The notes beneath the pieces were generated by a model. That model saw only the letters and a program-made list of their open reading frames with translations. It did not search any database and was not told the origin of the DNA. Below, one piece after another: positions 1,781 through 27,538 of a stretch of DNA of 32,035 bases; the stretch's first letter is position 1, and each line of letters opens with the position of its first letter. Source of the DNA: a virus (taxonomy: Duplodnaviria; Heunggongvirae; Uroviricota; Caudoviricetes); IMG/VR virus record IMGVR_UViG_2690316263_000015, positions 1 through 32,035 of that record, one strand, 5' to 3'. A program made the position numbers and the translations under genes.

Positions 1781-2590
1781 ATGAATAATCTGATGGTCAT
1801 TGATGGTATTGAAGTTCGTCGTGATGCTTATGGGCGTTACAGCCTGAACGATCTGCATCGTGCAGCAGTAGCATCTGGTGCAAATGCCAGAACCAAGGAG
1901 CCAGGAAAGTTTCTTTCCAGCCAACAAACTGTTGAACTTGTTCATGAATTGACCAACACCCAGAATTTGGGTGTTGACCCGGTGAGTGTGATTCATGGGG
2001 GAAATGAACGGGGAACTTATGTCTGCAAGGAACTGGTGTATGCCTATGCAATGTGGATCAGCCCGTCATTCCATCTGAAGGTGATCCGTACTTTCGATAT
2101 GGTAACCAGCGCACCGGAAAAATTATCCGGGCAGGCTGCTGACAAGATGCAGGCTGGAGTGATTCTGCTGGACTTTATGCGCCGGGAGTTAAATCTGTCT
2201 AACTCATCAGTGCTTGGTGCCTGTCAGAAACTTCAGGAGGCTGTTGGCTTACCGAATCTGGCACCGCGCTATGCCATTGATGCTCCTGCTGATGCACACG
2301 ATGGCTCAAGTCGCCCGACACTGTCACTGAGTGCACTGCTGAAACAGTATGGTATCCGCCTGACGGCTAATCAGGCATATCACCAGATGGTGAAGCTGGG
2401 GATCGTCGAGCAGCGTGAACGATACAGCCGTACCGCGATTAACAACATCAAAAAATTCTGGTCGCTGACAGCGAAAGGTTGCATGTTCGGCAAGAACATC
2501 ACCAGTCCCGCAAATCCGCGCGAGACGCAGCCGCATTTCTTCGAATCCCGATTCCCTGAGCTGTTAAAGCTGCTCGATACCGTTCATTGA
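1781..2590 (+). CDS. KilA-N domain protein (antirepressor-like)
   Basis: ATG 1781 preceded by AAGGAG. N-terminal MNNLMVIDGIEVR ... GTYVCKELVYAYAMWISPSFHLKVI is a KilA-N DNA-binding domain signature. Confidence 0.65.
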   Translation: MNNLMVIDGIEVRRDAYGRYSLNDLHRAAVASGANARTKEPGKFLSSQQTVELVHELTNTQNLGVDPVSVIHGGNERGTYVCKELVYAYAMWISPSFHLKVIRTFDMVTSAPEKLSGQAADKMQAGVILLDFMRRELNLSNSSVLGACQKLQEAVGLPNLAPRYAIDAPADAHDGSSRPTLSLSALLKQYGIRLTANQAYHQMVKLGIVEQRERYSRTAINNIKKFWSLTAKGCMFGKNITSPANPRETQPHFFESRFPELLKLLDTVH

Positions 2591-2591
2591 G

Positions 2592-3587
2592 GTGACCGTG
2601 AGAGCACTACTGACCCCTGAAATTGCCCCGCGTATGGGGATCGTATTGTTCAGGCCAGGTTCAGAGCTGATGCCCCTGTTTATGCAGGGGCGTGTCCTGC
2701 TGGAGCCTGAGCCGGAACGTTACTCATCTTTCGCCAGTGGTGCCGTTCCGGCGGCATCACAACCGCTGGCGGATGATCCTGCCGTTCGGGCCGTGTTCCG
2801 CAATGAGGCAGTGATCCGTCGTGCTGGTGGCGTGGAATGTCTTGAAAGCTGGTTACTTCGTGAAAAAGGCTGCCAGTGGCCTCATTCCGACTGGCACAGC
2901 GAGAACATGACCACAATGCGACACGCTCCGGGCGCAATCCGTCTGTGCTGGCACTGCGATAACCAGCTGCGCGATCAGTTCACGGAACGGCTGGAATCAA
3001 TGGCAACGGATAACTGTGCCCGCTGGGTGTTGTCTGTTGTGCGTCGGGATCTCGGTTTTGATGACAGTCACGTTGTGACAATGCCGGAACTGTGCTGGTG
3101 GCTGATTCGTAATGATCTGGCGGATGCCTTACCGGAAAGTGCAGCCCGTAAGGCACTGAGATTACCGAAGCCTGTTGTGCCATCTGTCACCCGGGAAAGT
3201 GACCTTGTGCCTTCGGTTCCTGCCACCAGCATCATCCAGGATAAAGCAAAAAAGGTGCTGGCGCTGAAAGTGGATCCGGAGTCGCCGGAGTCTTTTATGT
3301 TACGCCCAAAACGTCGCCGCTGGGTTAATGAAAAGTACACGCGCTGGGTTAAGACACAGCCGTGTGCATGTTGTGGAAAGCCCGCTGATGATCCCCACCA
3401 CCTGATAGGTCACGGTCAGGGTGGAATGGGAACAAAAGCGCATGACCTCTTTGTGTTGCCTTTGTGCAGAAAGCATCACGACGAGCTGCATGCGGATACC
3501 GTGGCATTTGAAGAGAAGTATGGCTCCCAGCTGGAGCTGATATTTCGTTTTATCGATCGTGCGCTGGCAATAGGCGTACTGGCGTAA
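2592..3587 (+). CDS. DUF968 (YdfU-like) protein with C-terminal Cys/His metal-binding motif
   Basis: 331-aa ORF; C-terminus CACCGKPADDPHHLIGHG ... LCRKHHDELH resembles DUF968 proteins found upstream of Q in lambdoid prophages. Start ambiguous (GTG 2592 or GTG 2598 after GAGGTG). Confidence 0.55.
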   Translation: MTVRALLTPEIAPRMGIVLFRPGSELMPLFMQGRVLLEPEPERYSSFASGAVPAASQPLADDPAVRAVFRNEAVIRRAGGVECLESWLLREKGCQWPHSDWHSENMTTMRHAPGAIRLCWHCDNQLRDQFTERLESMATDNCARWVLSVVRRDLGFDDSHVVTMPELCWWLIRNDLADALPESAARKALRLPKPVVPSVTRESDLVPSVPATSIIQDKAKKVLALKVDPESPESFMLRPKRRRWVNEKYTRWVKTQPCACCGKPADDPHHLIGHGQGGMGTKAHDLFVLPLCRKHHDELHADTVAFEEKYGSQLELIFRFIDRALAIGVLA

Positions 3588-6199: not shown

Positions 6200-6592
6200 A
6201 TGTCTGAACCCTTGTCCGGTTCCGGTACGGCTGCGGCGCTCGGCGGGGCGACGGTATTCGGGCTGTTTACCGGAACGGATTTCGGGATTGTGTTTGGGGC
6301 GTTCGCTGGGGCGTTATTTGTGGCAACGATGCCGCAGGCGCTTTCAGCCTGGCGTGTGGCGGCGCATTTTCTGGTGTCGTTTATCGTTGGCGTGCTGGGT
6401 GCGCATGTGCTGTCAGCCTGGATTGCATCAAAAACAGGTTATGACGGTACATCGGCGGATGCACTGTGTGCGGTGCTGGTGGCGGTGGTGTCGGTGAAGA
6501 TTCTCTCGTTCATCCACCAGCAGGATATTGCATCGCTGGTGTCCGGCCTGTTCTCCCGCCTGCGGGGTGGAGGAGGCGGCAATGTTAAGTAA
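6200..6592 (+). CDS. putative holin (multi-transmembrane lysis protein)
   Basis: ATG 6200 after AGGAG (6188-6192). 130 aa with Gly/Ala-rich hydrophobic segments and a charged C-terminus; two genes upstream of the endolysin. Confidence 0.45.
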   Translation: MSEPLSGSGTAAALGGATVFGLFTGTDFGIVFGAFAGALFVATMPQALSAWRVAAHFLVSFIVGVLGAHVLSAWIASKTGYDGTSADALCAVLVAVVSVKILSFIHQQDIASLVSGLFSRLRGGGGGNVK

Positions 6593-6857
6593 CCTTCCCG
6601 GATTGCTGAATGTGGCGTTATGCACGGTTATCGTGCTGACGCTCTTTTTTTATCGTCGTCGTGATTCCAGACATAAACCGCTGATGTCATGGCTGGCCTG
6701 GTTGCTGATGCTGCTGTATGCCTTTGCGCCCCTCAGCTATCTGTGTGGTCGCCCGTTAGCAACGGGCTGGCTGGAAGTGTTTTTTAATCTGCTGTTCTGC
6801 GTGCTGGTGATACGCGCGCGCGGGAACGTCACAAAAATCTTTCCATTATTGAGGTGA
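6582..6857 (+). CDS. lysis-cassette membrane protein (holin/antiholin-like)
   Basis: ATG 6582 after GGAGGAGG, overlapping the upstream stop. 91 aa with about three hydrophobic helices (LLNVALCTVIVLTLFFY, WLAWLLMLLYAFAPL, VFFNLLFCVLVI). Stop overlaps the endolysin SD. Confidence 0.4.
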   Translation: MLSNLPGLLNVALCTVIVLTLFFYRRRDSRHKPLMSWLAWLLMLLYAFAPLSYLCGRPLATGWLEVFFNLLFCVLVIRARGNVTKIFPLLR

Positions 6858-6859
6858 AT

Positions 6860-7237
6860 ATGTCGGGTAAATTCAGATTCAGTCGTCGCAGCGAAAAGAA
6901 TCTGGAGGGCGTTAAACCACAGCTGGTTGCTGTCGTTCGCCGTGCGCTGGAGCTGACGGAGGTTGATTTCGGTATTACGGAAGGGCTGCGCACGAAAGAA
7001 CGCCAGAAACAGCTGGTCGCGGAAGGGAAAAGCCAGACCATGAACAGCCGCCACCTGACCGGTGATGCGGTGGATGTTGTTGCCTGGGTTGGCAGCCAGG
7101 TGTCATGGGACTGGCCTCTGTACGAGAAAATCGCGCAGGCATTTAAGCAGGCTGCCGCAGAGCTGGGAACAGCCATCGAATGGGGCGGGGACTGGCGGAC
7201 GCTTAAAGACGGCCCACATTTTCAATTGAAGCGATAG
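6860..7237 (+). CDS. endolysin, M15-family peptidase (L-alanyl-D-glutamate endopeptidase-like)
   Basis: ATG 6860 after GAGGTG. 125 aa; segments GLRTKERQKQLVAEGKSQTMNSRHLTGDAVDV and GGDWRTLKDGPHFQL match the VanY/M15 Zn-peptidase endolysin pattern. Confidence 0.75.
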   Translation: MSGKFRFSRRSEKNLEGVKPQLVAVVRRALELTEVDFGITEGLRTKERQKQLVAEGKSQTMNSRHLTGDAVDVVAWVGSQVSWDWPLYEKIAQAFKQAAAELGTAIEWGGDWRTLKDGPHFQLKR

Positions 7238-7835: not shown

Positions 7836-8018
7836 ATGACGCGAAAACACTGGACACACAGAATGCCGCGAACGGCGGTGAAATGGGCACTGGTAGCGAT
7901 ACTGGTGCCTTTTTTCCTGGTGGGCTGCGTCAGCCTGGATAAGGCGCGCCAGCTTTTCGATACAGCTTCTCAGGTCTGTGAAATTGTTGATAGTGTCCGG
8001 CAGTGTATGCAGAACTGA
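7836..8018 (+). CDS. small lipoprotein (60 aa; lipobox LVGC), hypothetical
   Basis: Signal peptide with basic N-region, hydrophobic core WALVAILVPFFLVG, then Cys. Predicted mature peptide about 29 aa (CVSLDKARQLFDTASQVCEIVDSVRQCMQN). Confidence 0.4.
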   Translation: MTRKHWTHRMPRTAVKWALVAILVPFFLVGCVSLDKARQLFDTASQVCEIVDSVRQCMQN

Positions 8019-8060
8019 CCGACGGTGAGAGCAGAATATTTTTTAGAGGAGCGAAATTCT

Positions 8061-8411
8061 ATGCCATCACAAATCCCTCGTGCATGCCGTAAGCGAGGCT
8101 GTGCAGGCACAACGACGGACAGTTCTGGCTACTGCGATAAGCATCGCGGCGAAGGTTGGACACAACATCAACGCGGACTGAGCCGCCACCAGCGTGGCTA
8201 TGGCTCGAAATGGGATGCCATACGTGCGCGCATACTGAAGCGTGATAATCATTTGTGTCAGAACTGCCTGCGCAATGGGAGAGCCGTTGAAGCCAGAACT
8301 GTGGACCACATCATTCCGAAAGCGCATGGCGGTACGGATGCAGACGGTAATCTGCAGAGCCTGTGCTGGCCATGCCACAAGGCGAAGACGGCCCGTGAAC
8401 GGCTTAAGTGA
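8061..8411 (+). CDS. HNH endonuclease (packaging-associated)
   Basis: ATG 8061 after GAGGAG. Cys pairs (CRKRGCAG, CDKH) plus HNH core (VDHIIPKAHGG ... GNLQSLCWPCH); sits directly upstream of terminase small subunit, as in HK97-type packaging modules. Confidence 0.8.
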   Translation: MPSQIPRACRKRGCAGTTTDSSGYCDKHRGEGWTQHQRGLSRHQRGYGSKWDAIRARILKRDNHLCQNCLRNGRAVEARTVDHIIPKAHGGTDADGNLQSLCWPCHKAKTARERLK

Positions 8412-8535
8412 TAATGATTCTCAACTGCCAGAGGGGAGGGCAGGTCAAATCCCTGTGACCTGACGTCTTCCGGACTGCCCGCCCCATCGTTTTTTTATAC
8501 CCGCGAAAAATGAAATTTAACCAGGAGTGCCGCAT

Positions 8536-9030
8536 ATGGCTGGAACGGCGGGGCGTTCCGGGCGTCGCCCCAAGCCAACGGCGCGCAAGGTGCTGGCCGG
8601 AAACCCCGGCAAGCGAGCCCTGAATAAAGATGAACCTGTTTTTACGCCCATCAAAGGTGTTGAGCCACCGGAGTGGTTCGCTGAAGAAGATCTCCCTCTC
8701 GCCACGACCATGTGGCAACTGACAACCAAAGAACTCTGCGGTCAGGGCCTGCTGTGCGTGACTGACCTTGCGGTGCTTGAGCGGTGGTGTGTGGCCTATG
8801 AGTTCTGGCGGCGTGCCGTGAAAAATATTGCCAGACAGGGCAACACCATCACTGGTGCAATGGGCGGCAGGGTCAAAAATCCGGAGCTGACCGCCAAAAA
8901 AGAACAGGAGTCCGAGATGAGCAGCACGGGGGCAATGCTCGGACTCGACCCCAGCAGCCGCCAGCGTCTGATTGGCCTGGCGGGGCAGAAGAAAGCCACT
9001 AACCCGTTTCTGAAAATCATCGAGTCATGA
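8536..9030 (+). CDS. terminase small subunit (P27-family type)
   Basis: ATG 8536. N-terminal [30 protein letters not shown] is characteristic of P27-family small terminase subunits; overlaps the large subunit start (ATGA). Confidence 0.8.
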
Positions 9031-10760
9031 GCCGGAAATCTTACCCCAACGTAAATGCTGCCAATCAGTATGCCCGTGATGTCGTGCGCGGAAAGATTGT
9101 GGCCTGCCAGTTTGTGATTCAGGCCTGCCAGCGCCATCTTGATGACCTGATGGCGGAAAAAAGTAAGTCGTTTCGTTACCGCTTCGACAAGGACCTGGCT
9201 GAACGGGCCGCCAAATTTATTCAGCTGTTGCCGCACACCAAGGGTGAGTGGGCATTTAAGAGGATGCCCATCACGCTGGAGCCGTGGCAGCTCTTTGTGA
9301 TCTGCTGCGCGTTTGGCTGGGTCAATAAAGGCTCCCGGCTGCGCCGCTTCCGTGAGGTGTATACCGAAATCCCCCGTAAGAACGGCAAATCAGCAATCTC
9401 TGCCGGTGTTGCCCTGTATTGTTTTGCCTGTGATAACGAGTTTGGCGCGGAAGTGTATTCCGGTGCCACGACAGAGAAACAGGCGTGGGAAGTCTTTCGC
9501 CCGGCGCGACTGATGTGTAAACGCACACCCATGCTGACGGAAGCGTTCGGGATTGAGGTTAACGCCTCAAACATGAACCGTCCGGAGGATGGCGCGCGGT
9601 TTGAACCGCTGATCGGTAACCCCGGTGATGGTTCATCACCCCACTGTGCGGTGGTGGATGAATATCACGAGCACGCCACCGATGCGCTTTATACCACGAT
9701 GCTTACCGGGATGGGGGCGCGACGTCAGCCACTGATGTGGGCCATCACCACCGCCGGGTACAACATTGAGGGGCCGTGCTACGACAAGCGGCGGGAAGTT
9801 ATCGAGATGCTCAACGGTTCGGTACCCAACGATGAACTGTTCGGGATCATCTATACCGTTGACGAAGGCGATGACTGGACCGACCCGCAGGTGCTGGAAA
9901 AAGCCAACCCGAATATTGGCGTGTCGGTTTATCGCGAATTTTTGTTAAGTCAGCAGCAGCGTGCGAAAAATAACGCCCGTCTGGCAAACGTCTTTAAAAC
10001 AAAACACCTCAATATCTGGGTGTCGGCGCGTTCGGCGTATTTCAACCTGGTGAGCTGGCAGAGCTGCGAGGATAAATCACTGACCCTTGAGCAGTTCGAG
10101 GGGCAGCCGTGCATTCTGGCCTTTGACCTGGCGCGTAAGCTGGATATGAACAGCATGGCGCGACTTTATACCCGCGAGATTGACGGTAAAACGCATTACT
10201 ACAGTGTGGCCCCGCGTTTCTGGGTACCGTATGACACGGTGTACAGCGTCGAGAAAAATGAAGATCGCCGGACAGCCGAACGCTTTCAGAAATGGGTGGA
10301 AATGGGCGTTCTGACTGTTACCGCTGGTGCGGAGGTGGATTATCGCTACATCCTCGAGGAGGCCAAAGCGGCGAACAAAATCAGCCCGGTCAGTGAGTCA
10401 CCCATCGACCCCTTCGGGGCGACCGGGCTGTCGCATGACCTTGCTGATGAAGACCTGAACCCCATCACCATCATTCAGAACTACACCAACATGTCCGATC
10501 CGATGAAAGAGCTGGAAGCGGCGATTGAATCGGGGCGCTTTCATCATGACGGCAATCCCATCATGACCTGGTGTATCGGCAACGTGGTCGGCAAAACCAT
10601 TCCGGGTAACGATGATGTGGTGAAGCCTGTCAAGGAGCAGGCGGAAAACAAAATCGATGGTGCGGTTGCACTGATTATGGCGATCGGTCGGGCAATGCTC
10701 AAAGAACCCGACGATTTCCTCTCATCTCTTGATCCGGACGATGCTCTCTTAATTCTATGA
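9027..10760 (+). CDS. terminase large subunit
   Basis: 577 aa. ATPase region ([25 protein letters not shown], Walker-A-like) and C-terminal nuclease region; position and size typical of HK97-type TerL. Confidence 0.9.
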
Positions 10761-10918
10761 AATCACTAATTGCTGATGTTATCGGGTTGGCTGGTTTTGG
10801 CCTGCTTACGTGCGGGTTTTACCTGCAGTTTGGTATGGCTCCGGCTCTGATGCTGTCCGGCGGTTTACTGCTGGTGGGCGCACTGGCTATGGCCAGAAGG
10901 GGGACGCGTGCTGCTTGA
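10757..10918 (+). CDS. small hydrophobic protein (53 aa), hypothetical
   Basis: ATG 10757 overlaps the TerL stop. Translation [53 protein letters not shown]. Ends just inside the portal gene start. Not in ORF track. Confidence 0.25.
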
Positions 10919-12134
10919 TGCTCTGTTCAGAAGTAAATCACTGGAGAATCCTTCCACCCCGATAACCGGGGATGCCGTTGATACTGATGGGCTGTTCCGG
11001 GCAGACGTTTATGTCAGTCCTGAAACTGCGATGAAACTGGCTGCGGTGTATTCCTGTATCTATGTCCTGTCTTCCAGCCTTGCCCAGATGCCGTTGCATG
11101 TTATGCGCAGGCACAATGGGAAGGTTGAGCCCGCACGCGATCATCCGGCGTTTTATCTGGTTCATGATGAGCCCAATACCTGGCAAACCAGTTACAAATG
11201 GCGCGAACTGAAGCAACGTCACATCCTTGGCTGGGGGAATGGGTATACCTGGGTGAAACGTAATCGTCGCGGTGAAGTCATATCCCTGGATTGCTGTATG
11301 CCGTGGGAAACGACGCTGATGAATACTGGTGGCCGATACACCTACGGTTTGTACAACGAATATGGGGCGTTTGCGATCAGCCCCGACGATATGATCCACA
11401 TCCGTGCGCTGGGTAATAATCAGAAGATGGGGCTGAGTCCGATTATGCAACATGCCGAAACAATAGGCATGGGGATGAGCGGTCAGAAATACACAGAAAG
11501 CTTCTTCAGCGGTAATGCCCGTCCGGCGGGGATAGTATCCGTTAAAAGCGGACTCAATAAGGACAGCTGGGGCTGGCTTAAAGATCAGTGGCAGAAGGCA
11601 TCGCAGGCGTTACGCAGCCAGGAAAACAAAACCATGCTGCTGCCAGCCGATCTGGATTACAAGGCACTGACTGTGTCGCCAGTTGACGCTCAGATCATTG
11701 ACATGATGAAACTGAACCGTTCAATGATTGCCGGTATTTTCAATATTCCTGCGCACATGATTAATGACCTCGAAAAAGCCACCTTCTCCAATATTTCTGC
11801 GCAGGCGATTCAGTTTGTCCGCTACACGATGATGCCGTGGGTGACGAACTGGGAGCAGGAGCTTAACCGTCGCTTGTTTACCCGCGCTGAGTTAGCCGCC
11901 GGGTATTACGTCAGGTTCAATCTGACGGGGCTTTTACGCGGAACTCCGCAGGAGCGCGCGCAATTCTATCACTTCGCTATTACCGATGGATGGATGAGCC
12001 GTAATGAGGCCCGCGCATTCGAGGATATGAATCCGGTTGAAGGGCTGGATGAGATGCTGGTAAGCGTGAATGCTGCTAACCCGGCAGGAGATTTTAAGCC
12101 CCCAAAAAATGATGAGGGAAAAACCAATGAATGA
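10908..12134 (+). CDS. portal protein (HK97 family)
   Basis: GTG 10908 after AAGGGGG. 408 aa; size and position (after TerL, before prohead protease) fit HK97-family portal; C-terminal acidic tail. Confidence 0.85.
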   Translation: MLLDALFRSKSLENPSTPITGDAVDTDGLFRADVYVSPETAMKLAAVYSCIYVLSSSLAQMPLHVMRRHNGKVEPARDHPAFYLVHDEPNTWQTSYKWRELKQRHILGWGNGYTWVKRNRRGEVISLDCCMPWETTLMNTGGRYTYGLYNEYGAFAISPDDMIHIRALGNNQKMGLSPIMQHAETIGMGMSGQKYTESFFSGNARPAGIVSVKSGLNKDSWGWLKDQWQKASQALRSQENKTMLLPADLDYKALTVSPVDAQIIDMMKLNRSMIAGIFNIPAHMINDLEKATFSNISAQAIQFVRYTMMPWVTNWEQELNRRLFTRAELAAGYYVRFNLTGLLRGTPQERAQFYHFAITDGWMSRNEARAFEDMNPVEGLDEMLVSVNAANPAGDFKPPKNDEGKTNE

Positions 12135-12729
12135 CCGTGAAATCCGTTGTTACAGCGGTGAGGTGCGTGCTGAGCGGCATGACGATAACCCTGCGCACAT
12201 TATCGGTTATGGATCGGTGTTTGACTGTCGTTCTGAGCTGATATTTGGTTCATTCCGCGAAATCATCCGGCCCGGCGCTTTTGACGATGTGCTTGGTGAT
12301 GATGTACGCGCACTGTTTAACCACGATCCTAATTTTATTCTTGGGCGTAGTGCAGCAGGCACGCTGAATCTTTCAGTTGATGAGCGCGGATTGCGCTATG
12401 ACATCCAGGCTCCGGAGACACAGACCATTCGTGATCTGGTGCTGGCCCCGATGCAACGTGGAGATATTAACCAGTCATCTTTTGCTTTCCGTGTCGCCCG
12501 TGACGGCGAGGAGTGGTATCAGGATGAGGACGGGGTTGTTATTCGCGAGATAACCCGCTTTTCCCGTCTGCTGGATGTCAGTCCTGTGACATATCCTGCC
12601 TATCAGGAGGCTGACTCGGCTGTTCGCTCCATGAAAGCATGGCAGGAGGCGCGCAACAGCGGCGCGCTACAGAAAGCCATTAATCAACGTATGGCGCGTG
12701 AGCGCGTCCTGACCCTTCTTAACGCGTAA
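12127..12729 (+). CDS. prohead maturation protease (HK97/S78 family)
   Basis: ATG 12127 after GAGGGA. 200 aa, sits between portal and major capsid genes as in HK97-type head modules; assignment is by position and overall resemblance, catalytic residues not mapped. Confidence 0.85.
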   Translation: MNDREIRCYSGEVRAERHDDNPAHIIGYGSVFDCRSELIFGSFREIIRPGAFDDVLGDDVRALFNHDPNFILGRSAAGTLNLSVDERGLRYDIQAPETQTIRDLVLAPMQRGDINQSSFAFRVARDGEEWYQDEDGVVIREITRFSRLLDVSPVTYPAYQEADSAVRSMKAWQEARNSGALQKAINQRMARERVLTLLNA

Positions 12730-12739
12730 AGGAAACATC

Positions 12740-13969
12740 ATGAAACTGCATGAACTGAAACAGAAACGTAATACTATCGCAACTGACATGCGTGCCCTGA
12801 ATGAAAAAATTGGTGATAACGCATGGACGGAAGAGCAGCGCACTGAGTGGAACAAAGCAAAATCCGAACTGGAAGCGCTTGATGAACGAATTGCACGCGA
12901 AGAAGAACTGCGTCGTCAGGATCAGGCGTACATTGAAAGCAATGAGGAAGAGCAGCGTCAGAATCTTGATCCGGAAAACAATCCGCAACAGGATGAGAAA
13001 CGAGCTCAGGTTTTTGATAAGTGGATGCGTCACGGTGCCAGTGAGCTGACATCAGAAGAACGAAAGGCGTTGCGTGAACTTCGTGCCCAGGGCGTAGCTC
13101 AGGATGAAAAGGGCGGATATACCGTACCAGAAACATTCCTGGCGAAAGTTGTTGAGAAGATGAAATCCTACGGTGGCATCGCCAGTGTGGCGCAGATTCT
13201 TACCACTTCTGACGGTCGCACTATGGAGTGGGCAACAGCTGATGGTACTTCCGAAGTTGGTGTTCTGCTGGGCGAAAATGAAGAAGCCGGTGAAGAAGAC
13301 ACCGATTTCGGTATGGGAAGCCTTGGGGCGCTCAAAATGACATCGAAAATAATTCGTGTGTCTAATGAGTTGCTGCAGGACAGTGCGATCGATATGGAAG
13401 CTTATCTTGCCCGTCGCATTGCTGAACGTATTGGTCGTGGTGAAGCCCGTTATCTGATTCAGGGGACGGGGGCTGGTACGCCTAAACAACCCAAAGGGCT
13501 GGCAGCATCAGTGACCGGCACAACACAGACTGCCGCGGCAAATGCGGTGAAGTGGCAGGAAATTCTGGCTCTGAAACACAGCATTGATCCTGCATATCGT
13601 CGCGGACCGAAATTCCGCCTGGCGTTTAACGATAATACGCTGAAACTGATCAGTGAGATGGAAGACGGTCAGGGACGCCCTTTATGGTTGCCGGATATTG
13701 TTGGTGTGGCACCTGCTTCAGTGTTGAATGTACCGTATGTCATTGATCAGGAAATTGATGATATCGGGGCGGGTAAAAAATTCATGTTCTGTGGTGACTT
13801 TGATCGCTTCATTATCCGTCGTGTGCGATACATGATTCTTAAACGTCTGGTTGAGCGTTACGCGGAATATGATCAGACCGGTTTTCTGGCCTTCCATCGT
13901 TTTGACTGTATCCTGGAAGACACCTCTGCCATTAAAGCGCTGGTGGGGAAAGGTAGCGTTGGTGGTTGA
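12740..13969 (+). CDS. major capsid protein (HK97 family, with N-terminal delta/scaffold domain)
   Basis: 409 aa. N-terminal coiled-coil-like charged region (EEQRTEWNKAKSELEALDERIAREEELRRQ) followed by a capsid core; immediately after the prohead protease. Confidence 0.9.
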   Translation: MKLHELKQKRNTIATDMRALNEKIGDNAWTEEQRTEWNKAKSELEALDERIAREEELRRQDQAYIESNEEEQRQNLDPENNPQQDEKRAQVFDKWMRHGASELTSEERKALRELRAQGVAQDEKGGYTVPETFLAKVVEKMKSYGGIASVAQILTTSDGRTMEWATADGTSEVGVLLGENEEAGEEDTDFGMGSLGALKMTSKIIRVSNELLQDSAIDMEAYLARRIAERIGRGEARYLIQGTGAGTPKQPKGLAASVTGTTQTAAANAVKWQEILALKHSIDPAYRRGPKFRLAFNDNTLKLISEMEDGQGRPLWLPDIVGVAPASVLNVPYVIDQEIDDIGAGKKFMFCGDFDRFIIRRVRYMILKRLVERYAEYDQTGFLAFHRFDCILEDTSAIKALVGKGSVGG

Positions 13970-13994
13970 TTAGTCTTTTTACGTAATACAGCAC

Positions 13995-14037
13995 GCCGCG
14001 TAATGCGGTTTTTTTGTGCCCGCGTTCTGGCGGGCAC
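13995..14037 (+). terminator. two hairpins after the capsid gene (weak terminator/attenuator plus structured leader)
   Basis: CCGC-gtaat-GCGG followed by T7, then GTGCCCGC-gttctg-GCGGGCAC immediately before the SD of the next gene. Confidence 0.35.
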
Positions 14038-14047
14038 AGGAGGTTTT

Positions 14048-14371
14048 ATGCTGTTAAAAATGGAAGAGATTAAGCTTCAGCTTCGTCTGGATGATGATTT
14101 CTCTGATGAAGATGAGTTGCTTGAACTACTTGGGAAGGCCGCTCAGAGTCGGACGGAAAACTTCCTTAACCGTACGTTGTATGCAACCGCAGATGACAAG
14201 CCTGCGGATGATCCTGATGGGCTTGTGATATCTGATGATGTGAAGCTGGCGCTCCTGCTACTTGTCAGCCATTTCTACGAAAATCGCTCAACGGTTACAG
14301 ACGTTGAGAAAATGGAGTTGCCAATGAGCTTTAACTGGTTGGTTGCTCCTTATCGCCTTATACCACTATGA
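14048..14371 (+). CDS. head-tail connector protein (gp6-like)
   Basis: ATG 14048 after GGAGG. 107 aa, acidic, first gene after the capsid gene; typical of gp6-like head-tail connectors. Confidence 0.6.
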   Translation: MLLKMEEIKLQLRLDDDFSDEDELLELLGKAAQSRTENFLNRTLYATADDKPADDPDGLVISDDVKLALLLLVSHFYENRSTVTDVEKMELPMSFNWLVAPYRLIPL

Positions 14372-14778
14372 AAATTCGTCAGGCGCAGACCAGCGCAACC
14401 TACATTCTGCCTGACCCAGGCGAGCTGAATAAACGCGTCCTGATCCGCCAGCGGGTGGATATGCCCGCGGATAACTTTGGCGTGGAGCCTCAATACCCGG
14501 TTGCGTTCCGGGCATGGGCGAAGGTTATCCAGACCAGTGCCACCACCTGGCAGGAAACCGCGCAGATCGGAGATGCCATCACCCATTACATCACCATTCG
14601 CTACCGCCGGGGGATCACTGCTGATTATGAGGTGGTCTGTGATGACAGTGTGTACCGGGTGAAACGTCAGCGTGATCTGAACGGGGCGCGGCGCTTTCTG
14701 CTGCTGGAGTGTACGGAACTGGGTGCCGAAGAACAAATGGGAGGACGCAGTGGAGCAGACAGCATTTTTACACGTTGA
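14368..14778 (+). CDS. head-tail adaptor / head closure protein
   Basis: ATGA overlap with the previous gene. 136 aa; position between connector and gp10-like protein. Confidence 0.55.
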   Translation: MKIRQAQTSATYILPDPGELNKRVLIRQRVDMPADNFGVEPQYPVAFRAWAKVIQTSATTWQETAQIGDAITHYITIRYRRGITADYEVVCDDSVYRVKRQRDLNGARRFLLLECTELGAEEQMGGRSGADSIFTR

Positions 14779-15274
14779 TTTCAAACAACCGGAGGAGATG
14801 GAGTTTAATCGTGCCAGGCTCCGAAGGGCATTTGTTCAAATCGGGCGTGTCTATATGCGTGATGCCCGGCGGCTGGTGATGCGACGTGGTCGGTCTGCTC
14901 CAGGTGAAAACCCCGGCTATCAGACCGGACGACTTGCGCGTTCTATAGGTTATTACGTCCCCCGTAAAAGCTCCCGTCGTTCTGGCCTGATGGTCAGGAT
15001 TTCCCCTAACCAGAAAAACGGGCAGGGTAACCGGCGTTTTCCTGAAGGTTCTGCGTATTATCCGGCGTTTCTGTATTACGGTGTGCGTCATGCCGCATAC
15101 GGGATGAGCAAAAAGGATAAGCGCCAGAAAAAGCAGCATTCATCCCGCTGGCGGCTGGCACCACGTAATAACTTTATGGCTGATGTCATCGACCAGCGTC
15201 GTTACTGGACACAAAAGTTACTGTCCCGTGAGTTACAGCGGTCATTACGTCCTGTAAGAAGGAAAAAAACATGA
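14750..15274 (+). CDS. HK97 gp10-family tail/neck component
   Basis: Probable GTG 14750 after GGGAGGA (the ORF track starts at 14723 and overlaps the previous gene by 56 nt). Basic protein; position after head-tail adaptor. Confidence 0.5.
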   Translation: MEQTAFLHVDFKQPEEMEFNRARLRRAFVQIGRVYMRDARRLVMRRGRSAPGENPGYQTGRLARSIGYYVPRKSSRRSGLMVRISPNQKNGQGNRRFPEGSAYYPAFLYYGVRHAAYGMSKKDKRQKKQHSSRWRLAPRNNFMADVIDQRRYWTQKLLSRELQRSLRPVRRKKT

Positions 15275-15831
15275 AACTGACGCCTGTTATTGCTGCGCTG
15301 CGTGCCCGCTGCCCGTATTTTGAAAACCGGGTGGCAGGTGCGGCCCAGTTCAAAAATCTGCCGGAGGTCGGAAAGCTGAAACTCCCGGCGGCATATGTGG
15401 TACCGGGGGATGATTCTCCGGGAGAAAACAAAAGCCAGACCGACTACTGGCAGGAACTGAAAGAGGGCTTCTCCGTGATTGTCATACTGAGTAACGGGCG
15501 TGATGAGCGCGGTCAGTTTGCCTCGTATGATGTGGTGGGCGATGTCCGGCAGATGCTCTTTAAGGCCCTGCTGGGCTGGAACCCGGAAGCGTGCGGTAAC
15601 CCGATTACCTATGACGGCGGCACGCTGCTGGATCTGAATCGTCATGAGCTGATTTATCAGTTCGATTTTTCGGTCATCAGCGAGCTGACCGAAGACGATA
15701 CCCGCCAGCAGGATGAGCTGAACAGTCTGGATGAACTGCGAACGCTGGCGATTGATGTTGATTATCTCGATCCCGGTAACGGGCCTGACGGCGATATCGA
15801 ACATCACACCGAAATAACCCTTCCTTCCTGA
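15271..15831 (+). CDS. tail-associated protein upstream of sheath (tail completion/terminator-like), function uncertain
   Basis: ATGA overlap with the previous gene. 186 aa acidic protein immediately upstream of the sheath gene cluster. Confidence 0.4.
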   Translation: MKLTPVIAALRARCPYFENRVAGAAQFKNLPEVGKLKLPAAYVVPGDDSPGENKSQTDYWQELKEGFSVIVILSNGRDERGQFASYDVVGDVRQMLFKALLGWNPEACGNPITYDGGTLLDLNRHELIYQFDFSVISELTEDDTRQQDELNSLDELRTLAIDVDYLDPGNGPDGDIEHHTEITLPS

Positions 15832-15839
15832 GAATCTTC

Positions 15840-16010
15840 ATGTTTGTGAAACCTGTTAAAGGGCGGTCAGTGCCTGACCCTGCCCGCGGTGACCTTTTGC
15901 CCACCGAAGGGCGAAATGTTGATGAGAACAACTACTGGCTGCGCCGTGAAGCAGCGGGTGATATCCGGCGCGTGAATAAAAAGGTGAACACCGATGACGA
16001 TAAGCTTTAA
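15840..16010 (+). CDS. small protein (56 aa) preceding the sheath gene, hypothetical
   Basis: ATG 15840. Translation MFVKPVKGRSVPDPARGDLLPTEGRNVDENNYWLRREAAGDIRRVNKKVNTDDDKL. Overlaps the sheath start by 17 nt. Not in ORF track. Confidence 0.3.
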   Translation: MFVKPVKGRSVPDPARGDLLPTEGRNVDENNYWLRREAAGDIRRVNKKVNTDDDKL

Positions 16011-17490
16011 CACCATTCCGTCGAATACGCTGGTTCCGCTGTTTTATGCGGAAATGGATAACTCGGCGGCGAATACTGCACAGGACAGCGGGGCATCGTT
16101 GCTGATTGGTCACGCCAATAACGGTGCAGAGATTGTTGCCAACAGTCTGGTGCTGATGCCGTCGGCAGACTATGCACGCCAGATTTGTGGTGCGGGAAGT
16201 CAGCTGGCGCGTATGGTCGAGGCTTATCGCCAGACCGATCCGTTTGGCGAGCTGTATGTGATTGCCGTTCCGGAAGCCACAGGCGCGGCGGCAACGGTTA
16301 CGCTGACGGTGACCGGAGCAGCAACCGAAACCGGCACGGTGAATGTTTATGTGGGACGTACCCGCGTGCAGGCACCGGTGACCAACGGCGATAACGTCAC
16401 GACGATTGCCAGCAGTATCCAGGATGCCATCAATGCCGTTCCGGCCCTGCCGTTTACGGCCTCATCTTCGGCAGGCGTGGTCACGCTGACCGCGCGTCAT
16501 AAGGGGCTTTGCGGGAATGAAATTCCTGTCAGCCTCAATTACTACGGCTTTGGTGGGGGCGAAGTGCTGCCAGCGGGCGTACAGATTGCCGTGGCGACGG
16601 GGAGCGCCGGAACGGGCGCTCCGGTTCTCACCGGTGCGGTGGCTGCAATGGCGGATGAGCCGTTTGATTATATTGGCTTGCCGTTCAACGACACGGCCTC
16701 CGTTAACACGCTGGTGACCGAGATGAACGATACCAGCGGTCGCTGGAGCTATGCGCGTCAGCTGTATGGTCATGTGTATACGGCAAAGATCGGCACGCTG
16801 TCAGAACTGGTGACCGCAGGTGACCAGTTTAACCAGCAGCACATTACCCTGGCGGGATACGAAAAAGACACTCAGACGCCAGCCGACGAGCTGGCGGCAA
16901 GCCGTACCGCCCGCGCAGCGGTGTTTATTCGCAACGATCCGGCACGTCCCACGCAGACCGGTGAGCTGGTGGGTATGCTGCCTGCACCGAAGGGGAAACG
17001 GTTCACGATGACCGAGCAACAGACCCTGCTGTCTCATGGCGTGGCAACGGCGTATGTCGAAAGTGGGGTACTGCGCATTCAGCGTGATGTCACCACGTAC
17101 AGGAAAAACGCTTACGGGGTTGCGGATAACAGCTACCTCGACAGTGAGACGCTGCATACCAGCGCGTATGTACTGCGCAAACTGAAATCCGTCATTACCA
17201 GTAAGTACGGGCGTCACAAGCTTGCCAGTGACGGTACCCGCTTTGGTCCCGGTCAGGCGATTGTCACCCCGGCGGTGATCAAAGGGGAACTGCTGGCAAC
17301 CTACCGTCAGCTTGAGCGTGCGGGGATCGTGGAAAACTACGAACTGTTTAAGCAGTACCTGGTTGTGGAGCGTGATGCCAGCGATCCGAACCGCCTGAAC
17401 ACGCTGTTCCCGCCTGACTATGTTAACCAGTTGCGTGTCTTTGCCGTGGTTAACCAGTTCCGTCTTCAGTATTCAGAGGAGTCTGCATAA
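15994..17490 (+). CDS. contractile tail sheath protein (Mu gpL-like)
   Basis: ATG 15994 after AAGGTG. 498 aa; size and position (before tube and chaperone) typical of myovirus sheath. Confidence 0.85.
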   Translation: MTISFNTIPSNTLVPLFYAEMDNSAANTAQDSGASLLIGHANNGAEIVANSLVLMPSADYARQICGAGSQLARMVEAYRQTDPFGELYVIAVPEATGAAATVTLTVTGAATETGTVNVYVGRTRVQAPVTNGDNVTTIASSIQDAINAVPALPFTASSSAGVVTLTARHKGLCGNEIPVSLNYYGFGGGEVLPAGVQIAVATGSAGTGAPVLTGAVAAMADEPFDYIGLPFNDTASVNTLVTEMNDTSGRWSYARQLYGHVYTAKIGTLSELVTAGDQFNQQHITLAGYEKDTQTPADELAASRTARAAVFIRNDPARPTQTGELVGMLPAPKGKRFTMTEQQTLLSHGVATAYVESGVLRIQRDVTTYRKNAYGVADNSYLDSETLHTSAYVLRKLKSVITSKYGRHKLASDGTRFGPGQAIVTPAVIKGELLATYRQLERAGIVENYELFKQYLVVERDASDPNRLNTLFPPDYVNQLRVFAVVNQFRLQYSEESA

Positions 17491-17846
17491 TGGCCCGTAT
17501 CGGGGGAACCTGTTATTTCAAAATTGACGGTCAGCAGCTATCGCTGACCGGCGGCATTGAGGTGCCCATGAACAGGACGGTCAATGATGACATCATCGGC
17601 CTGGACGGTTCAGTGGACCGCAAGGAAACTCACCGTGCACCTTATGTCAAAGGGACCTTCAAGGTGCCGAAGAATTTTCCGGTGAGCAAAATCACCTCGT
17701 CTGATGAGATGACCATCACTGCCGAGCTGGCGAACGGTCAGGTCTATGTATTGTCGTCCGCCTGGCTGCACGGTGAAGCGAACCATAATGCCGAAGAAGG
17801 CACGGTTGATCTTGAGTTCCACGGTGAAGAAGGGGATTACCAGTGA
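17490..17846 (+). CDS. tail tube protein (Mu gpM-like)
   Basis: 118 aa directly after the sheath gene (TAATG overlap). Confidence 0.7.
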   Translation: MARIGGTCYFKIDGQQLSLTGGIEVPMNRTVNDDIIGLDGSVDRKETHRAPYVKGTFKVPKNFPVSKITSSDEMTITAELANGQVYVLSSAWLHGEANHNAEEGTVDLEFHGEEGDYQ

Positions 17847-18166
17847 TTGAGCTTGTACTTAAAAAACCGATCATCGCCCACAAAGAAACACTGCATGTGC
17901 TGGAAATACGTGAGCCTACGTATGACGAGATTGAGGCGCTGGGGTTCCCTTTCTCTGTTTCGCCTGATGGTGGTATGAAAATGGACAGTCAGGTGGCGCT
18001 GAAATATATCCCGCTTCTGGCCGGGATCCCGCGCTCGTCTGCAGCGCAGATGACGAAGCTGGATATTTTCAAGGCAGGCATGATTGTAATGCGTTTTTTT
18101 ACCGGCTTGGAGACGGAAGAGACCTCCGGAAGCGATTCTACAATGTCGCGTGGTTCTGGAAATTAA
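17843..18166 (+). CDS. tail assembly chaperone (G-like; candidate -1 frameshift site near its 3' end)
   Basis: GTG 17843. 107 aa between tube and tape-measure genes. Slippery T-TTT-TTT at 18094-18100 with the -1 frame open to 18257. Confidence 0.55.
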   Translation: MIELVLKKPIIAHKETLHVLEIREPTYDEIEALGFPFSVSPDGGMKMDSQVALKYIPLLAGIPRSSAAQMTKLDIFKAGMIVMRFFTGLETEETSGSDSTMSRGSGN

Positions 18167-18250
18167 ACCCCCTTGAACTTCGCCGGACGGCTATTTCCCA
18201 CTTTGCTGATCTGGAGGCAGAGGCCGTCCGTATAAATGAGGAGATGAAGC

Positions 18251-25231: not shown

Positions 25232-26059
25232 ATGCATCGTATAGACACGAAAACCGCGCAGAAGGATAAGTTCGGCGCGGGTAAGAACGGTTTTACCCGT
25301 GGTAACCCCCAGACTGGCACGCCTGCCACCGATCTGGATGATGACTACTTTGACATGTTGCAGGAAGAACTTTGTAGCGTGGTGGAGGCATCCGGTGCCA
25401 GTCTGGAGAAGGCGCGGCACGACCAGCTGCTTACCGCGCTTCGTGCGCTGCTGTTAAGCCGCAAGAATCCGTTTGGCGATATCAAATCGGATGGCACGGT
25501 GAAAACGGCTCTCGAAAACCTTGGTTTGGGAGAAGGTTCAGCATTACCCGTTGGCGTGCCTGTTCCGTGGCCTTCCGCCACTCCGCCAACAGGCTGGCTG
25601 AAATGCAACGGTGCCGCTTTTTCTGCAGAAGAATACCCGGAACTGGCAAAGGCTTACCCGACCAATAAATTGCCTGATTTACGCGGTGAATTTATTCGTG
25701 GCTGGGATGATGGACGTGGAGTGGATGCGGGGCGAGCCTTGCTAAGTCTTCAGGATGACTCTTTTGAAGCTCACAGACATGAGTCCTTTTTTTACGCGGG
25801 TATTTCACGCAATGAAACACCATTAAAAAATCTTCCAAGTTCAGACGAGATGCTGACTTTAAGTTCCACAACTAATGCCTTGTCCCCGGACAGTATTGAT
25901 GCCACCAATTCGTTAATTGGTAATGATGATTACAACTGTCTGATTGAAGGAAATAAAAATAACAAACGAACGGCAACGGGGTTGAGTACCAGTATTGTCG
26001 GTGCAGCAGAGACACGCCCACGTAATATTTCATTTAATTACATTGTGAGGGCTGCATGA
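25232..26059 (+). CDS. tail fibre protein: constant N-terminal part fused to the currently expressed variable C-terminal part with a tail-collar-like receptor-binding region
   Basis: ATG 25232 after GGAG. N-terminus [29 protein letters not shown] typical of Mu S / side-tail-fibre N-termini; collar-like motif [33 protein letters not shown]; crossover site inside the gene at 25509-25534. Confidence 0.8.
25509..25534. repeat. left recombination site of invertible segment (hix/gix-like, 26 bp)
   Basis: CTCTCGAAAACC-TT-GGTTTGGGAGAA resembles Hin/Gin crossover sites and is an imperfect inverted repeat of 27459-27484. Confidence 0.6.
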
Positions 26060-26661
26060 TGTATAACGCCATCTTAAATAATAAATTTATTGCCACAAAG
26101 GCAGGAGAGATTACCGTTTATAACTATGACAGTGAGACACGGGAGTATATTTCTGCATCAATTGAATATCTTGCTGTGGGTGTCGGTATCCCCGCATATT
26201 CCTGTTTAGATGCTCCTGGCACACATAAGGTTGGTTATGCAATCTGCCGTTCGGCAGATTTAAACTCATGGGAATATGTGCCAGACCATCGCGGTGAAGT
26301 TGTCTATAACACCGAAACGGGAGAATCAAAAGAAATCACAGCTCCGTGTGATTACCCTGAAAATACAACCACTATCGTCCCGTTAACGCCATACGATAAA
26401 TGGGATGGTGAGAAATGGGTGACAGATACTGAGGCACAGCATAGTGCCGCAGTAGACGCGGCAGAAGCACAGCGCCAGTCGCTGATTGATGCTGCAATGG
26501 CTTCCATCAGTCTGATTCAACTGAAATTACAGGCCGGGCGGAAGCTGACGCAGGCAGAAACAACCCGACTTAACGCCGTGCTGGATTACATTGACGCGGT
26601 GACGGTAACAGATACCAGCACCGCGCCGGATGTCATCTGGCCTGAACTGCCGGAGGCGTAG
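26056..26661 (+). CDS. tail fibre assembly protein (Tfa)
   Basis: 201 aa, ATGA-coupled to the fibre gene; the C-terminal region ([62 protein letters not shown]) is a typical Tfa chaperone domain. Confidence 0.75.
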
Positions 26662-27076: not shown

Positions 27077-27080
27077 TCTG

Positions 27081-27458: not shown

Positions 27459-27484
27459 TTCTCCCAAACCAACGTTTATGAAAA
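27459..27484. repeat. right recombination site of invertible segment (hix/gix-like, inverted)
   Basis: Its reverse complement TTTTCATAAACG-TT-GGTTTGGGAGAA matches the left site over the GGTTTGGGAGAA half-site and the central TT. Confidence 0.6.
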
Positions 27485-27538
27485 TGCAGAAATAACGAGC
27501 AAATGGCATCATTCCTGCTTTTGTCAGGGGGATCTACC

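Follow-up and report, generated by a model that had tools for sequence, protein, structure and literature searches.

The window, i.e., the whole stretch of 32,035 nucleotides that was analysed, is an SfV-like prophage with 96–98% identity to phage SfV. Two small open reading frames are found at module junctions on its plus strand. ORF1 (positions 10757–10918, 53 aa) lies between the genes for the terminase large subunit (TerL; 9027–10760; PF03354, PF20441) and the portal protein (10908–12134, with a GTG start; PF04860, Pfam E=2.9e-98), and ORF2 (15840–16010, 56 aa) lies between the gene for a Mu gp37-like tail terminator (15271–15831; PF23840, E=3.9e-26) and the tail sheath gene (15994–17490; PF04984, PF17482, PF17481), all of these neighbours being encoded on the same strand. 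ORF1 specifies a conserved small protein of phrog_7105, predicted to be membrane-located and putatively assigned to the YmfR/Sb3 superfamily. ORF2 specifies a DUF2635 protein (PF10948, phrog_208) that corresponds to SfV orf10 and is a homologue of Mu gp38. A lysis cassette, composed of a holin gene (6528–6857; PF05449) and an M15 endolysin gene (6854–7237), is situated 3.5 kb 5′ of ORF1.

ORF1 overlaps both of its neighbours. As an earlier note on this DNA had pointed out, the frame overlaps the TerL stop; on the plus strand, the sequence reads ATGA at 10757–10760, and the ORF1 ATG together with the TerL TGA is kept in 79 of 80 related viral contigs, the remaining one having a GTG start. At the 3′ end, ORF1 runs 11 nt into the portal gene, which begins with a GTG at 10908. 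A Shine-Dalgarno sequence is not evident in front of ORF1, and no promoter-like site was found on the plus strand within 10300–11200. The portal gene has its Shine-Dalgarno sequence, AAGGGGGA (10897–10904, plus strand), inside ORF1 codons 47–50 (R-R-G); this sequence is conserved across the close-clade loci, all of which carry (A/G)AGGGGGA 4 nt 5′ of the portal start; in loci L009, L016 and L017, this start is an ATG at the same position. The GC content of ORF1 is 0.556, versus 0.546 in TerL, 0.515 in the portal gene and 0.39–0.41 in cargo genes. A terminator-like hairpin at 10811–10827 within ORF1 is not meaningful, with one site found versus 0.8 expected by chance; the “putative terminator” annotated within SfII_03 is probably the same kind of artefact.

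ORF2 starts 8 nt past the stop of the tail terminator gene. It had been described as a basic frame that fills the gap before the sheath gene; it does sit there, but it also overlaps the sheath start at 15994 by 17 nt, and with 12 K+R versus 10 D+E the protein is only mildly basic overall.

Because 109 open frames of at least 30 aa overlap positions 8000–18500 (10.5 kb) of the window, the length of such a frame alone is not significant, and this abundance is what speaks for ORF1 and/or ORF2 being chance frames. That both are genes follows from their conservation, i.e., from intact relatives and from frame-specific dN/dS or pN/pS values. None of the 80 related IMG/VR viral contigs (24 protein variants) has an interrupted ORF1, and the geometry of the gene is identical in all of them; its 53-codon geometry is found again in an E. 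coli siphophage, in a Klebsiella phage and in divergent metagenome loci. PGAP calls a gene of identical geometry, the “hypothetical protein” WP_015364398, in 261 complete E. coli genomes. The dN/dS ratio of ORF1 is ~0.17 in frame versus 1.05 and 3.5 in the shifted frames, and the variable sites are distributed 24/15/42 over the three codon positions; for ORF2, pN/pS is 0.21 in frame versus 2.1 and 1.4 out of frame, with a distribution of 7/9/33. An ungapped control over the last 100 TerL codons is possibly misaligned for loci with another TerL type, and its value is unreliable. Towards the C-terminus of ORF1, conservation is in part explained by the embedded portal ribosome-binding site, which confounds amino-acid conservation at R48 and G49.

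Hence, ORF1 and ORF2 are real genes under purifying selection. Their codon-position periodicity and frame-specific selection, the intact state of ORF1 in all of the 80 relatives and the strong E-values with which both match HMM families effectively refute the chance-frame reading already, and its residual probability is negligible. The earlier note was, thus, right in taking both for small genes at module junctions and in placing them; the lack of conservation or interruption in relatives that it named as counter-evidence is not seen. Its description of both as unannotated needs qualification. ORF1 is indeed missing from the SfV record, solely because the portal start has been placed there 48 nt too far upstream; however, ORF2 is SfV orf10 with a DUF2635 assignment, and ORF1 is present in PGAP and PHROG. 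Both are, therefore, already catalogued, ordinary genes, although NCBIfam holds no family matching either of them and neither protein has a significant sequence match among solved structures.

The ORF1 protein matches phrog_7105 with E=9.2e-22, residues 1–52 aligning with profile positions 1–52 of 52; phrog_7105 and WP_015364398 are its own family and do not differ from it. The family comprises 121 clusters at 50% identity, nearly all of 47–60 aa, sharing the motif D7, G10, G13, G20-x-Y-L-x-F-G26 and G35. Its hydrophobic character, noted previously, is confirmed by a 15-residue Kyte-Doolittle mean of up to 2.16. The AlphaFold2 model (mean pLDDT 86) is a helical hairpin with helices at residues 3–25 and 27–48. 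The first predicted transmembrane helix (10763–10831, plus strand) carries the conserved D7, G10, G13 and G20, and the second one (10835–10900, plus strand) carries the invariant G35 and is followed by a basic tail that would be cytoplasmic. Column conservation and hydropathy were computed over 92 family members; the mean K+R content per segment is 1.1 at the N-terminus, 0.33 in the loop and 2.2 at the C-terminus. Based on this positive-inside distribution, an N-in/C-in topology with both ends in the cytoplasm is predicted.

All of the 92 scanned family members match phrog_7105, and 44 of these also match phrog_502, for which the match of ORF1 itself is weak (E=1e-4). The Sb3 family was identified as YmfR, i.e., phrog_502, designated “membrane protein” in PHROGs. 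An hhalign comparison of the ORF1 family with the Sb3/YmfR family yielded a probability of 95.6% and a score of 41.4, and 100 column shuffles gave 11.1 ± 2.6 with a maximum of 22.4; a mere effect of composition is excluded by this control, which remains far below the actual score. Profile comparison, thus, supports a remote, superfamily-level homology of ORF1 to YmfR of the E. coli K-12 prophage e14 and to Sb3 of Salmonella phage ST64B, but not its membership of YmfR proper. Like YmfR, Sb3 and SfII_03 (Shigella phage SfII), ORF1 is small, with two hydrophobic helices (predicted in ORF1), a short Gly/Pro turn and a basic C-terminal tail, and YmfR-type genes, too, are located between TerL and the gene for an HK97-family portal. 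In contrast, YmfR (60 aa) is 7 residues longer and only ~25–30% identical. Its turn reads WLIYPP, versus YLQFG in ORF1; the W-L-I-Y-P-P turn and the C-L-x-W-S-W helix 2 of YmfR/Sb3 are absent from ORF1, where the aligned positions read Y-L-Q-F-G-M and G-G-L-L-L-V-G-A-L. The YmfR-type gene also possesses its own Shine-Dalgarno sequence and follows TerL after an 11-nt gap, whereas ORF1 is joined by the ATGA overlap. The portal next to the YmfR-type gene is only 28% identical to that of the window. In the literature, nothing on function was found for ymfR, and nothing specific with the terms terminase, portal and transmembrane.

At all loci examined, the gene directly 3′ of an ORF1-family member is a PF04860 portal gene; this arrangement was seen in the window and in loci L007–L013, L016, L017, L019–L021 and L110–L120. 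Two of these, L020 and L110, lack an upstream TerL, and yet in both the small gene is retained and overlaps the portal gene by 4 nt. A genome-wide scan with a narrower alignment of the family yielded nine loci. The mosaic structure of the head modules allows the relations with either neighbour to be separated. A breakpoint between SfV-type and SfII/ST64B-type head modules was mapped to 10680–10685, some 26 codons short of the TerL stop; with megablast, the matches to SfI, SfII, SfIV and ST64B stop at window position 10682 (query position 283), and beyond this column the alignment diverges sharply. Compared with the window, SfII and ST64B are 91–97% identical in TerL, but only ~30% in the small protein and 28% in the portal, while six further loci show the reverse pattern, with 35–37% in TerL, 62–72% in the small protein and 82–85% in the portal. 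Across most mosaic recombinants, the similarity of the small protein, therefore, tracks the portal and not TerL. The linkage is not absolute, since the recombinant L085 has a portal 97% identical to that of the window, but a small protein of 53% (TerL, 36%).

With regard to expression, ORF1 would be translated within the late operon by coupling to TerL, i.e., by termination-reinitiation at the ATGA, and ribosomes that end ORF1 would be delivered to the portal ribosome-binding site within its final codons. This raises the question of whether ORF1 mainly serves as a translational-coupling leader that hands ribosomes over from TerL to the portal gene and sets the portal-to-TerL ratio, the peptide being incidental. 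The overlaps with both neighbours (ATGA on the 5′ side, 11 nt on the 3′ side), the portal Shine-Dalgarno sequence inside the last codons and the lack of an evident one upstream of ORF1 itself would all suit such a function. However, a leader has no need of a two-helix membrane hairpin, and purifying selection acts on the amino acids along the whole of ORF1 (dN/dS 0.17). Moreover, the ordered motif is kept over 121 clusters in spite of substitutional saturation of their DNA, and YmfR-type genes preserve the same protein architecture with another junction geometry and a Shine-Dalgarno sequence of their own. We, thus, consider this explanation very unlikely. A programmed frameshift that joins ORF1 to the portal, resulting in a membrane-anchored portal, was rejected because the portal frame is closed by a stop just 3 codons 5′ of its start (L007, L008, L009, L016 and L017). 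ORF1–portal fusion proteins do occur in databases (e.g., P0033) and are best explained as indel errors.

As for the protein itself, ORF1 is envisaged to enter the inner membrane and to form there an N-in/C-in hairpin whose helices would be held together by the conserved glycines, leaving only ~7 residues exposed to the cytoplasm at either end. Because it adjoins the portal gene in every arrangement and its similarity mostly follows the portal, the likeliest role would be that of a non-virion, membrane-located accessory working with the portal in early procapsid assembly or packaging; this proposal is a tentative one. The adjacency might reflect mere linkage and translational coupling, and a protein that exposes so little outside the membrane would offer a small surface for portal binding. 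In addition, a membrane requirement is not known for HK97-type procapsids, and a portal-assembly step at a membrane is established solely for the gp20–gp40 pair of phage T4. The T4 portal assembles on the membrane with a viral chaperone; gp40 is the phage factor that helps the gp20 portal dodecamer, from which the prohead is nucleated, to form at the inner membrane (PMC9958956). Between gp40 and ORF1, there is similarity neither in sequence nor in size, and the gene context is another one; the likeness is one of hypothetical function only. The further-reaching idea that the ORF1/YmfR superfamily as a whole is a dedicated membrane partner of HK97-family portals is, in our view, rather improbable.

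A different explanation, possible though equally doubtful, is that ORF1 is a membrane-acting host-takeover protein that serves, e.g., superinfection exclusion, lysis timing or an antiholin-like control, or depolarisation of the membrane; its place beside the portal gene would in that case be due to historical chance, and it would have stayed there because the coupling provides suitable late, low-level expression. Class II holins and pinholins are small proteins with two transmembrane helices, whose faces are rich in glycine, and with a charged C-terminus. ORF1 shares these features with, e.g., S21 (its two helices being predicted), and as a tiny glycine-rich hairpin with almost no soluble surface it resembles pinholins and small membrane modulators. 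Furthermore, the related phrog_502 is filed by PHROGs under “moron, auxiliary metabolic gene and host takeover”, a holin gene is the other-side neighbour of the small gene in L110, one of the 92 family members has a weak, sub-threshold holin Pfam match (E=0.0028), and L085 demonstrates an exchange of the small gene apart from the portal. On the other hand, ORF1 has neither a promoter nor a terminator of its own and is of native GC content, which is not moron-like; a canonical holin and endolysin cassette is present elsewhere in the window, and no PADLOC match was obtained. A function unrelated to the portal is also hard to square with a gene that is always found directly 5′ of the portal gene, even where TerL is lacking.

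Narrower identities were considered and dismissed. ORF1 as the phage holin was rejected in view of the holin and endolysin cassette at 6528–7237; it lies outside this cassette, is shorter than known holins, and no Pfam model, those of holins included, gave a match to it, the single family member mentioned above remaining sub-threshold. Neither was a moron, defence or superinfection-exclusion gene retained, considering the native GC content, the overlap of both ends with neighbouring genes and the lack of a promoter and of a PADLOC match. The lambda gpW gene, located between A and B, is likewise small and occupies the equivalent slot between TerL and portal, and in one phage record a YmfR-type gene is labelled “head-tail joining protein W”. 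However, lambda gpW is a soluble α/β protein, ORF1 and YmfR are hydrophobic hairpins (predicted in the case of ORF1), and neither of them matches Pfam gpW; the label is a position-based mis-annotation. What had been called unexplained in the earlier note is, thus, explained in part, by its place in a broad YmfR/Sb3-type superfamily of two-helix membrane proteins and by its genetic tie to an HK97-family portal gene.

ORF2 matches PF10948 (DUF2635) with E=4.2e-16 and 58.8 bits versus a gathering cut-off of 26.6, and it is 42% identical to Mu gp38 (E=8e-7). The gene order terminator–DUF2635–sheath is strict in ten phages with different head modules; besides the window, it is seen in Mu, ST64B, EPP-1, phiP27, YeP1, phiNP, BZS1, PG1 and PY223. 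ORF2 and gp38 are, thus, placed alike, gp38 being flanked in Mu by the genes for the terminator (gp37) and the sheath (gp39); they differ in length (56 versus 67 aa), with a shorter and more acidic C-terminal tail in ORF2, and in the head module to which they are coupled, which is HK97-type for ORF2 and Mu-type for gp38. AlphaFold2 predicts a β/α core of ~45 residues with a disordered, charged C-terminal tail (mean pLDDT 83). A convincing fold match to known tail-completion proteins was not obtained, and nothing was found in the literature on DUF2635 or Mup38.

The earlier suggestion of a small tail component is plausible by synteny within the tail module, and a structural tail protein, i.e., a sheath terminator or a tail-completion subunit, is a conceivable though not a probable identity of ORF2 and gp38. 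In favour of it are the invariant place between the terminator and sheath genes, the annotation of Mu_38 as “putative sheath terminator protein” in the current Mu GenBank record, and the listing of gp38 among “probably structural” proteins by the authors of the Mu structure (PMC11915804). However, the cryo-EM analysis of the Mu virion from 2025, with maps at 3.3–3.8 Å, resolved gp37, gp39 and gp40, but not gp38, and in the 3.5 Å terminator–tail map gp37 alone caps tube and sheath, with no density assigned to gp38 (PMC11915804); these data concern Mu and not SfV. The missing sequence match to any solved structure and the missing fold match to tail-completion proteins are further points against a structural subunit. 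The absence of gp38 from the maps is compatible with a low-copy or disordered virion component. Since the near-atomic maps of Mu did not show gp38 (PMC11915804), a role in assembly without being a structural part is no less likely than that of a tail component. ORF2 may be a tail-assembly accessory that is translated together with the sheath and probably not kept as an ordered subunit of the virion, a view to which we assign slightly less than an even chance.

Taken as a whole, with the inferred roles included, the explanation of ORF1 and ORF2 as true late genes, conserved by vertical descent, of a temperate SfV-like myophage is regarded as highly probable. Small phage genes are often dropped from annotation, as exemplified by the records of SfV, without ORF1, and of phiP27 and SfIV, without the DUF2635 gene. 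The Mu tail is otherwise well resolved, and the role of DUF2635/Mu gp38 is among the last of its parts to be assigned. About one in four complete E. coli genomes carries a member of the widespread YmfR family, to which ORF1 is now linked, and the most useful lead is a predicted membrane hairpin that is always encoded directly 5′ of the portal gene. If this placement is functional, head assembly of the HK97 type would gain a step at the membrane. Should the superfamily indeed be a dedicated portal partner, many HK97-like sipho- and myophages would nucleate their procapsids or dock their packaging vertex at the inner membrane via a hairpin of ~50 residues, a counterpart of the gp40/gp20 step in T4 that has gone unrecognised, and the strict retention of the gene 5′ of the portal through mosaic recombination would reflect co-adaptation and not linkage alone.

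The two small open reading frames (ORFs) pointed out in the earlier note, the hydrophobic 53-codon ORF1 (10757-10918, + strand) and the 56-codon ORF2 (15840-16010, + strand), are present exactly as described there, in a region that shares 96-98% identity with Shigella/Enterobacteria phage SfV and is also close to SfI, SfII, SfIV, SKA5 and related E. coli prophages. The gene order of the window was confirmed by Pfam scans, comprising holin (6528-6857), M15 endolysin (6854-7237), HNH endonuclease (8025-8411), TerS (8527-9030), TerL (9027-10760), ORF1, portal (10908-12134; PF04860), protease, major capsid protein and connector proteins downstream of the portal, tail terminator (15271-15831; PF23840), ORF2, sheath (15994-17490), tube (17490-17846), tail assembly chaperone (17843-18166; PF10109), and a 635-aa ORF (18251-20158) that is a putative tape measure by position. 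Between the end of the chaperone ORF (18166) and the next large ORF lie 85 nt, the usual site of a frameshift-extended chaperone product.

ORF length alone is little evidence for a gene, since as many as 109 ORFs with 30 or more aa overlap the 10.5-kb stretch around ORF1 and ORF2. ORF1 overlaps both of its neighbours: its start codon and the stop codon of TerL form an ATGA, and at its 3' end 11 nt are shared with the portal gene, which starts with GTG. With these same overlaps, the 53-codon frame is intact in 80/80 IMG/VR contigs whose portal is at least 89% identical (24 protein variants, 33 distinct DNA sequences), and the geometry (162 nt, 4-nt TerL overlap, 11-nt portal overlap) is kept in members down to 64% identity, originating from metagenomes, a Klebsiella phage and an E. 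coli siphophage. The dN/dS ratio across 11 loci amounts to 0.17 when read in the frame of ORF1 and to 1.05 and 3.5 in the two shifted frames; variable sites are distributed 24/15/42 over codon positions 1/2/3. Thus, the loss or interruption in close relatives that was to speak against the gene is not found, and purifying selection acts on ORF1 at the protein level. At five loci, the portal frame has a stop three codons upstream of its start, which excludes a conserved ORF1-portal frameshift fusion.

The designation "unannotated" is correct for the SfV records, but not for PGAP, which, in 261 of 5426 complete E. coli genomes, lists the gene product as a "hypothetical protein" (WP_015364398). 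In SfV (NC_003444), both GenBank and RefSeq let the portal CDS (1961-3235) begin with a GTG that precedes the conserved start by 48 nt and lies inside ORF1, so that the 3' third of ORF1 falls within the portal CDS; ORF1 is missing from the SfV records because of this misplaced start. The window does not contain that upstream GTG. The conserved Shine-Dalgarno sequence (A/G)AGGGGGA just upstream of position 10908 and an ATG at exactly this position in several relatives support 10908 as the true portal start.

ORF1 has no match in Pfam, NCBIfam or PADLOC, but is matched full-length by phrog_7105 (E=9e-22). Searching 1.84 billion representative proteins with a profile yielded 121 clusters at 50% identity, nearly all of 47-60 residues, with the ordered motif K2, D7, G10, G13, G20-(V)-Y-L-x-F-G26-L, A-L-M, invariant G35, L-L-L and a basic tail. 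AlphaFold2 predicts a tight helical hairpin (residues 3-25 and 27-48; mean pLDDT 86), and the distribution of K+R in the family (mean 1.1 at the N-terminus, 0.33 in the loop, 2.2 at the C-terminus) indicates an N-in/C-in topology with a periplasmic turn of ~6 residues.

In SfII, ST64B and 689R6, where TerL is 91-97% identical to that of the window and the head module is different, the slot between TerL and portal holds another two-helix "membrane protein" (Sb3/SfII_03) of 58-60 residues, compared with 53 in ORF1. This protein is encoded by ymfR, a gene that was named in the E. coli K-12 e14 prophage and is carried by 1390 of 5426 complete E. coli genomes; among the papers listed as mentioning ymfR, none said what YmfR does. 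Aligned by hhalign, the two families score 41.4 (probability 95.6%, E=1.3e-8), far above 100 column shuffles (11.1 ± 2.6, maximum 22.4) and the reversed alignment (16.7), so the similarity is not due to composition alone; 44 of 92 ORF1-family members also match the YmfR-type phrog_502. By these profile comparisons, the two families are related. In Escherichia phage vB_EcoM-689R6 (2879-3055), the YmfR-type hairpin is labelled "head-tail joining protein W", which appears to be a mis-annotation that goes by position, on the model of lambda.

At ~10682, 26 codons before the TerL stop, the similarity between SfV-type and SfII-type sequences breaks off abruptly; with the breakpoint inside the TerL 3' end, the TerL C-terminal tail, small gene and portal are exchanged together. 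SfII and ST64B share 91-97% identity with the window in TerL, ~30% in the small protein and 28% in the portal, while six other loci (L007, L008, L016, L017, L115, L116) share 35-37%, 62-72% and 82-85%, respectively. Over 39 loci, identity of the small protein correlates with that of the portal at 0.84 (Pearson), versus 0.58 for TerL. The exception is IMGVR_UViG_2585427789_000003 (L085; 36%, 53% and 97%), with a GTG-started VKQLITDMTG… variant, in which the identities place the exchange point between small gene and portal gene. Among distant family members, the gene lies between TerL and portal in L019, L021 and L111; L020 and L110 have no TerL upstream (a holin is there in L110), and the small gene still directly precedes a PF04860 portal gene with a 4-nt overlap. 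On this comparative basis, the portal is the near-constant partner of the family. The genome of the symbiont Symbiopectobacterium purcellii (NZ_CP189882.1) carries one TerL/small gene/portal block in five separate chromosomal copies (L116-L120), each encoding an identical 52-aa small protein.

That the gene stays next to the portal is the only functional clue to ORF1, and we tentatively favour, as one possibility, an accessory protein in the membrane that helps to assemble the portal or procapsid, or helps in packaging. ORF1 has no promoter-like site of its own, and its last codons contain the ribosome-binding site of the portal gene. Its translation would occur late, by termination-reinitiation from TerL, and would leave the ribosomes that complete it placed at the portal start; the product would sit in the inner membrane as a hairpin packed through its glycines. 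A precedent exists only in T4, where assembly of the portal gp20 on the membrane depends on gp40 (PMC9958956); there is no homology to ORF1. The main rival, about equally likely, is that ORF1 acts at the membrane in host takeover, exclusion or lysis timing and simply profits from the expression slot. The GC content of ORF1 is native (0.556), versus 0.39-0.41 for the cargo genes. That ORF1 is purely a translational-coupling leader is unlikely, as selection acts on its amino-acid sequence.

ORF2 corresponds to SfV orf10; it begins 8 nt downstream of the terminator gene and shares 17 nt with the start of the sheath gene. It matches Pfam DUF2635 (58.8 bits; cut-off 26.6), phrog_208 and Mu gp38 (42% identity, E=8e-7), with pN/pS of 0.21 in frame versus 2.1 and 1.4 out of frame. 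The order terminator-like protein (~185 aa), DUF2635, sheath, tube is found in 10/10 phages with HK97-type or Mu-type heads from Escherichia, Salmonella, Edwardsiella, Yersinia, Citrobacter, Serratia, Pseudomonas/Stutzerimonas and Bordetella. The conserved core, F-V-K-P-x-x-G-R-x-V-P-D-P-x-x-G-x-x-L-P-x-x-G-x-x-V-x-x-x-x-Y-W-x-R-R-x-x-x-G-D-V, is followed by a variable charged tail; AlphaFold2 predicts a small beta/alpha domain (pLDDT >90 for residues 1-40) and a disordered tail. Mu gp38 is termed "putative sheath terminator protein" in the current GenBank record. However, in the 2025 Mu virion structure, gp37 caps both tube and sheath and gp38 could not be located (PMC11915804), which makes an ordered virion subunit rather doubtful and favours, at somewhat below even chances, a non-structural tail-assembly accessory co-translated with the sheath. 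In phiP27 (NC_003356, 1801-1962) the DUF2635 gene is intact and unannotated, and it is apparently absent from the SfIV annotation (KC814930, NC_022749), the same small-ORF gap as for ORF1 in SfV.

Elsewhere in the window, an ORF of 60 aa (7836-8018, +) that separates the lysis genes from the HNH gene has no Pfam match; its signal-peptide-like N-terminus and lipobox-like L-V-G-C motif (…VPFFLVGCVSL…) would fit a small lipoprotein, e.g., o-spanin-like. Directly after plus-strand ORFs at 25232-26661, genes for a tail-fibre C-terminal domain (PF21882) and tail-fibre assembly (PF02413) lie on the opposite strand (26633-27512, -), an arrangement that resembles an alternative or invertible fibre cassette of the Mu G-segment kind. 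The tail-fibre genes are followed by two minus-strand genes (27763-29712 and 30545-31465; GC 0.39-0.41), one for a GmrSD type IV restriction endonuclease (PF03235 and PF07510), the other for an AbiTii abortive-infection protein (PF18864), which together look like a prophage cargo defence island.

Altogether, the earlier interpretation of both ORFs is borne out in part; as sequence features they are already known, each belonging to a catalogued family. What is added here is the cause of ORF1's absence from the SfV record, its homology to YmfR as indicated by profile alignment, its near-constant linkage to the portal gene, and an argument from the literature by which DUF2635 probably does not form an ordered part of the tail.
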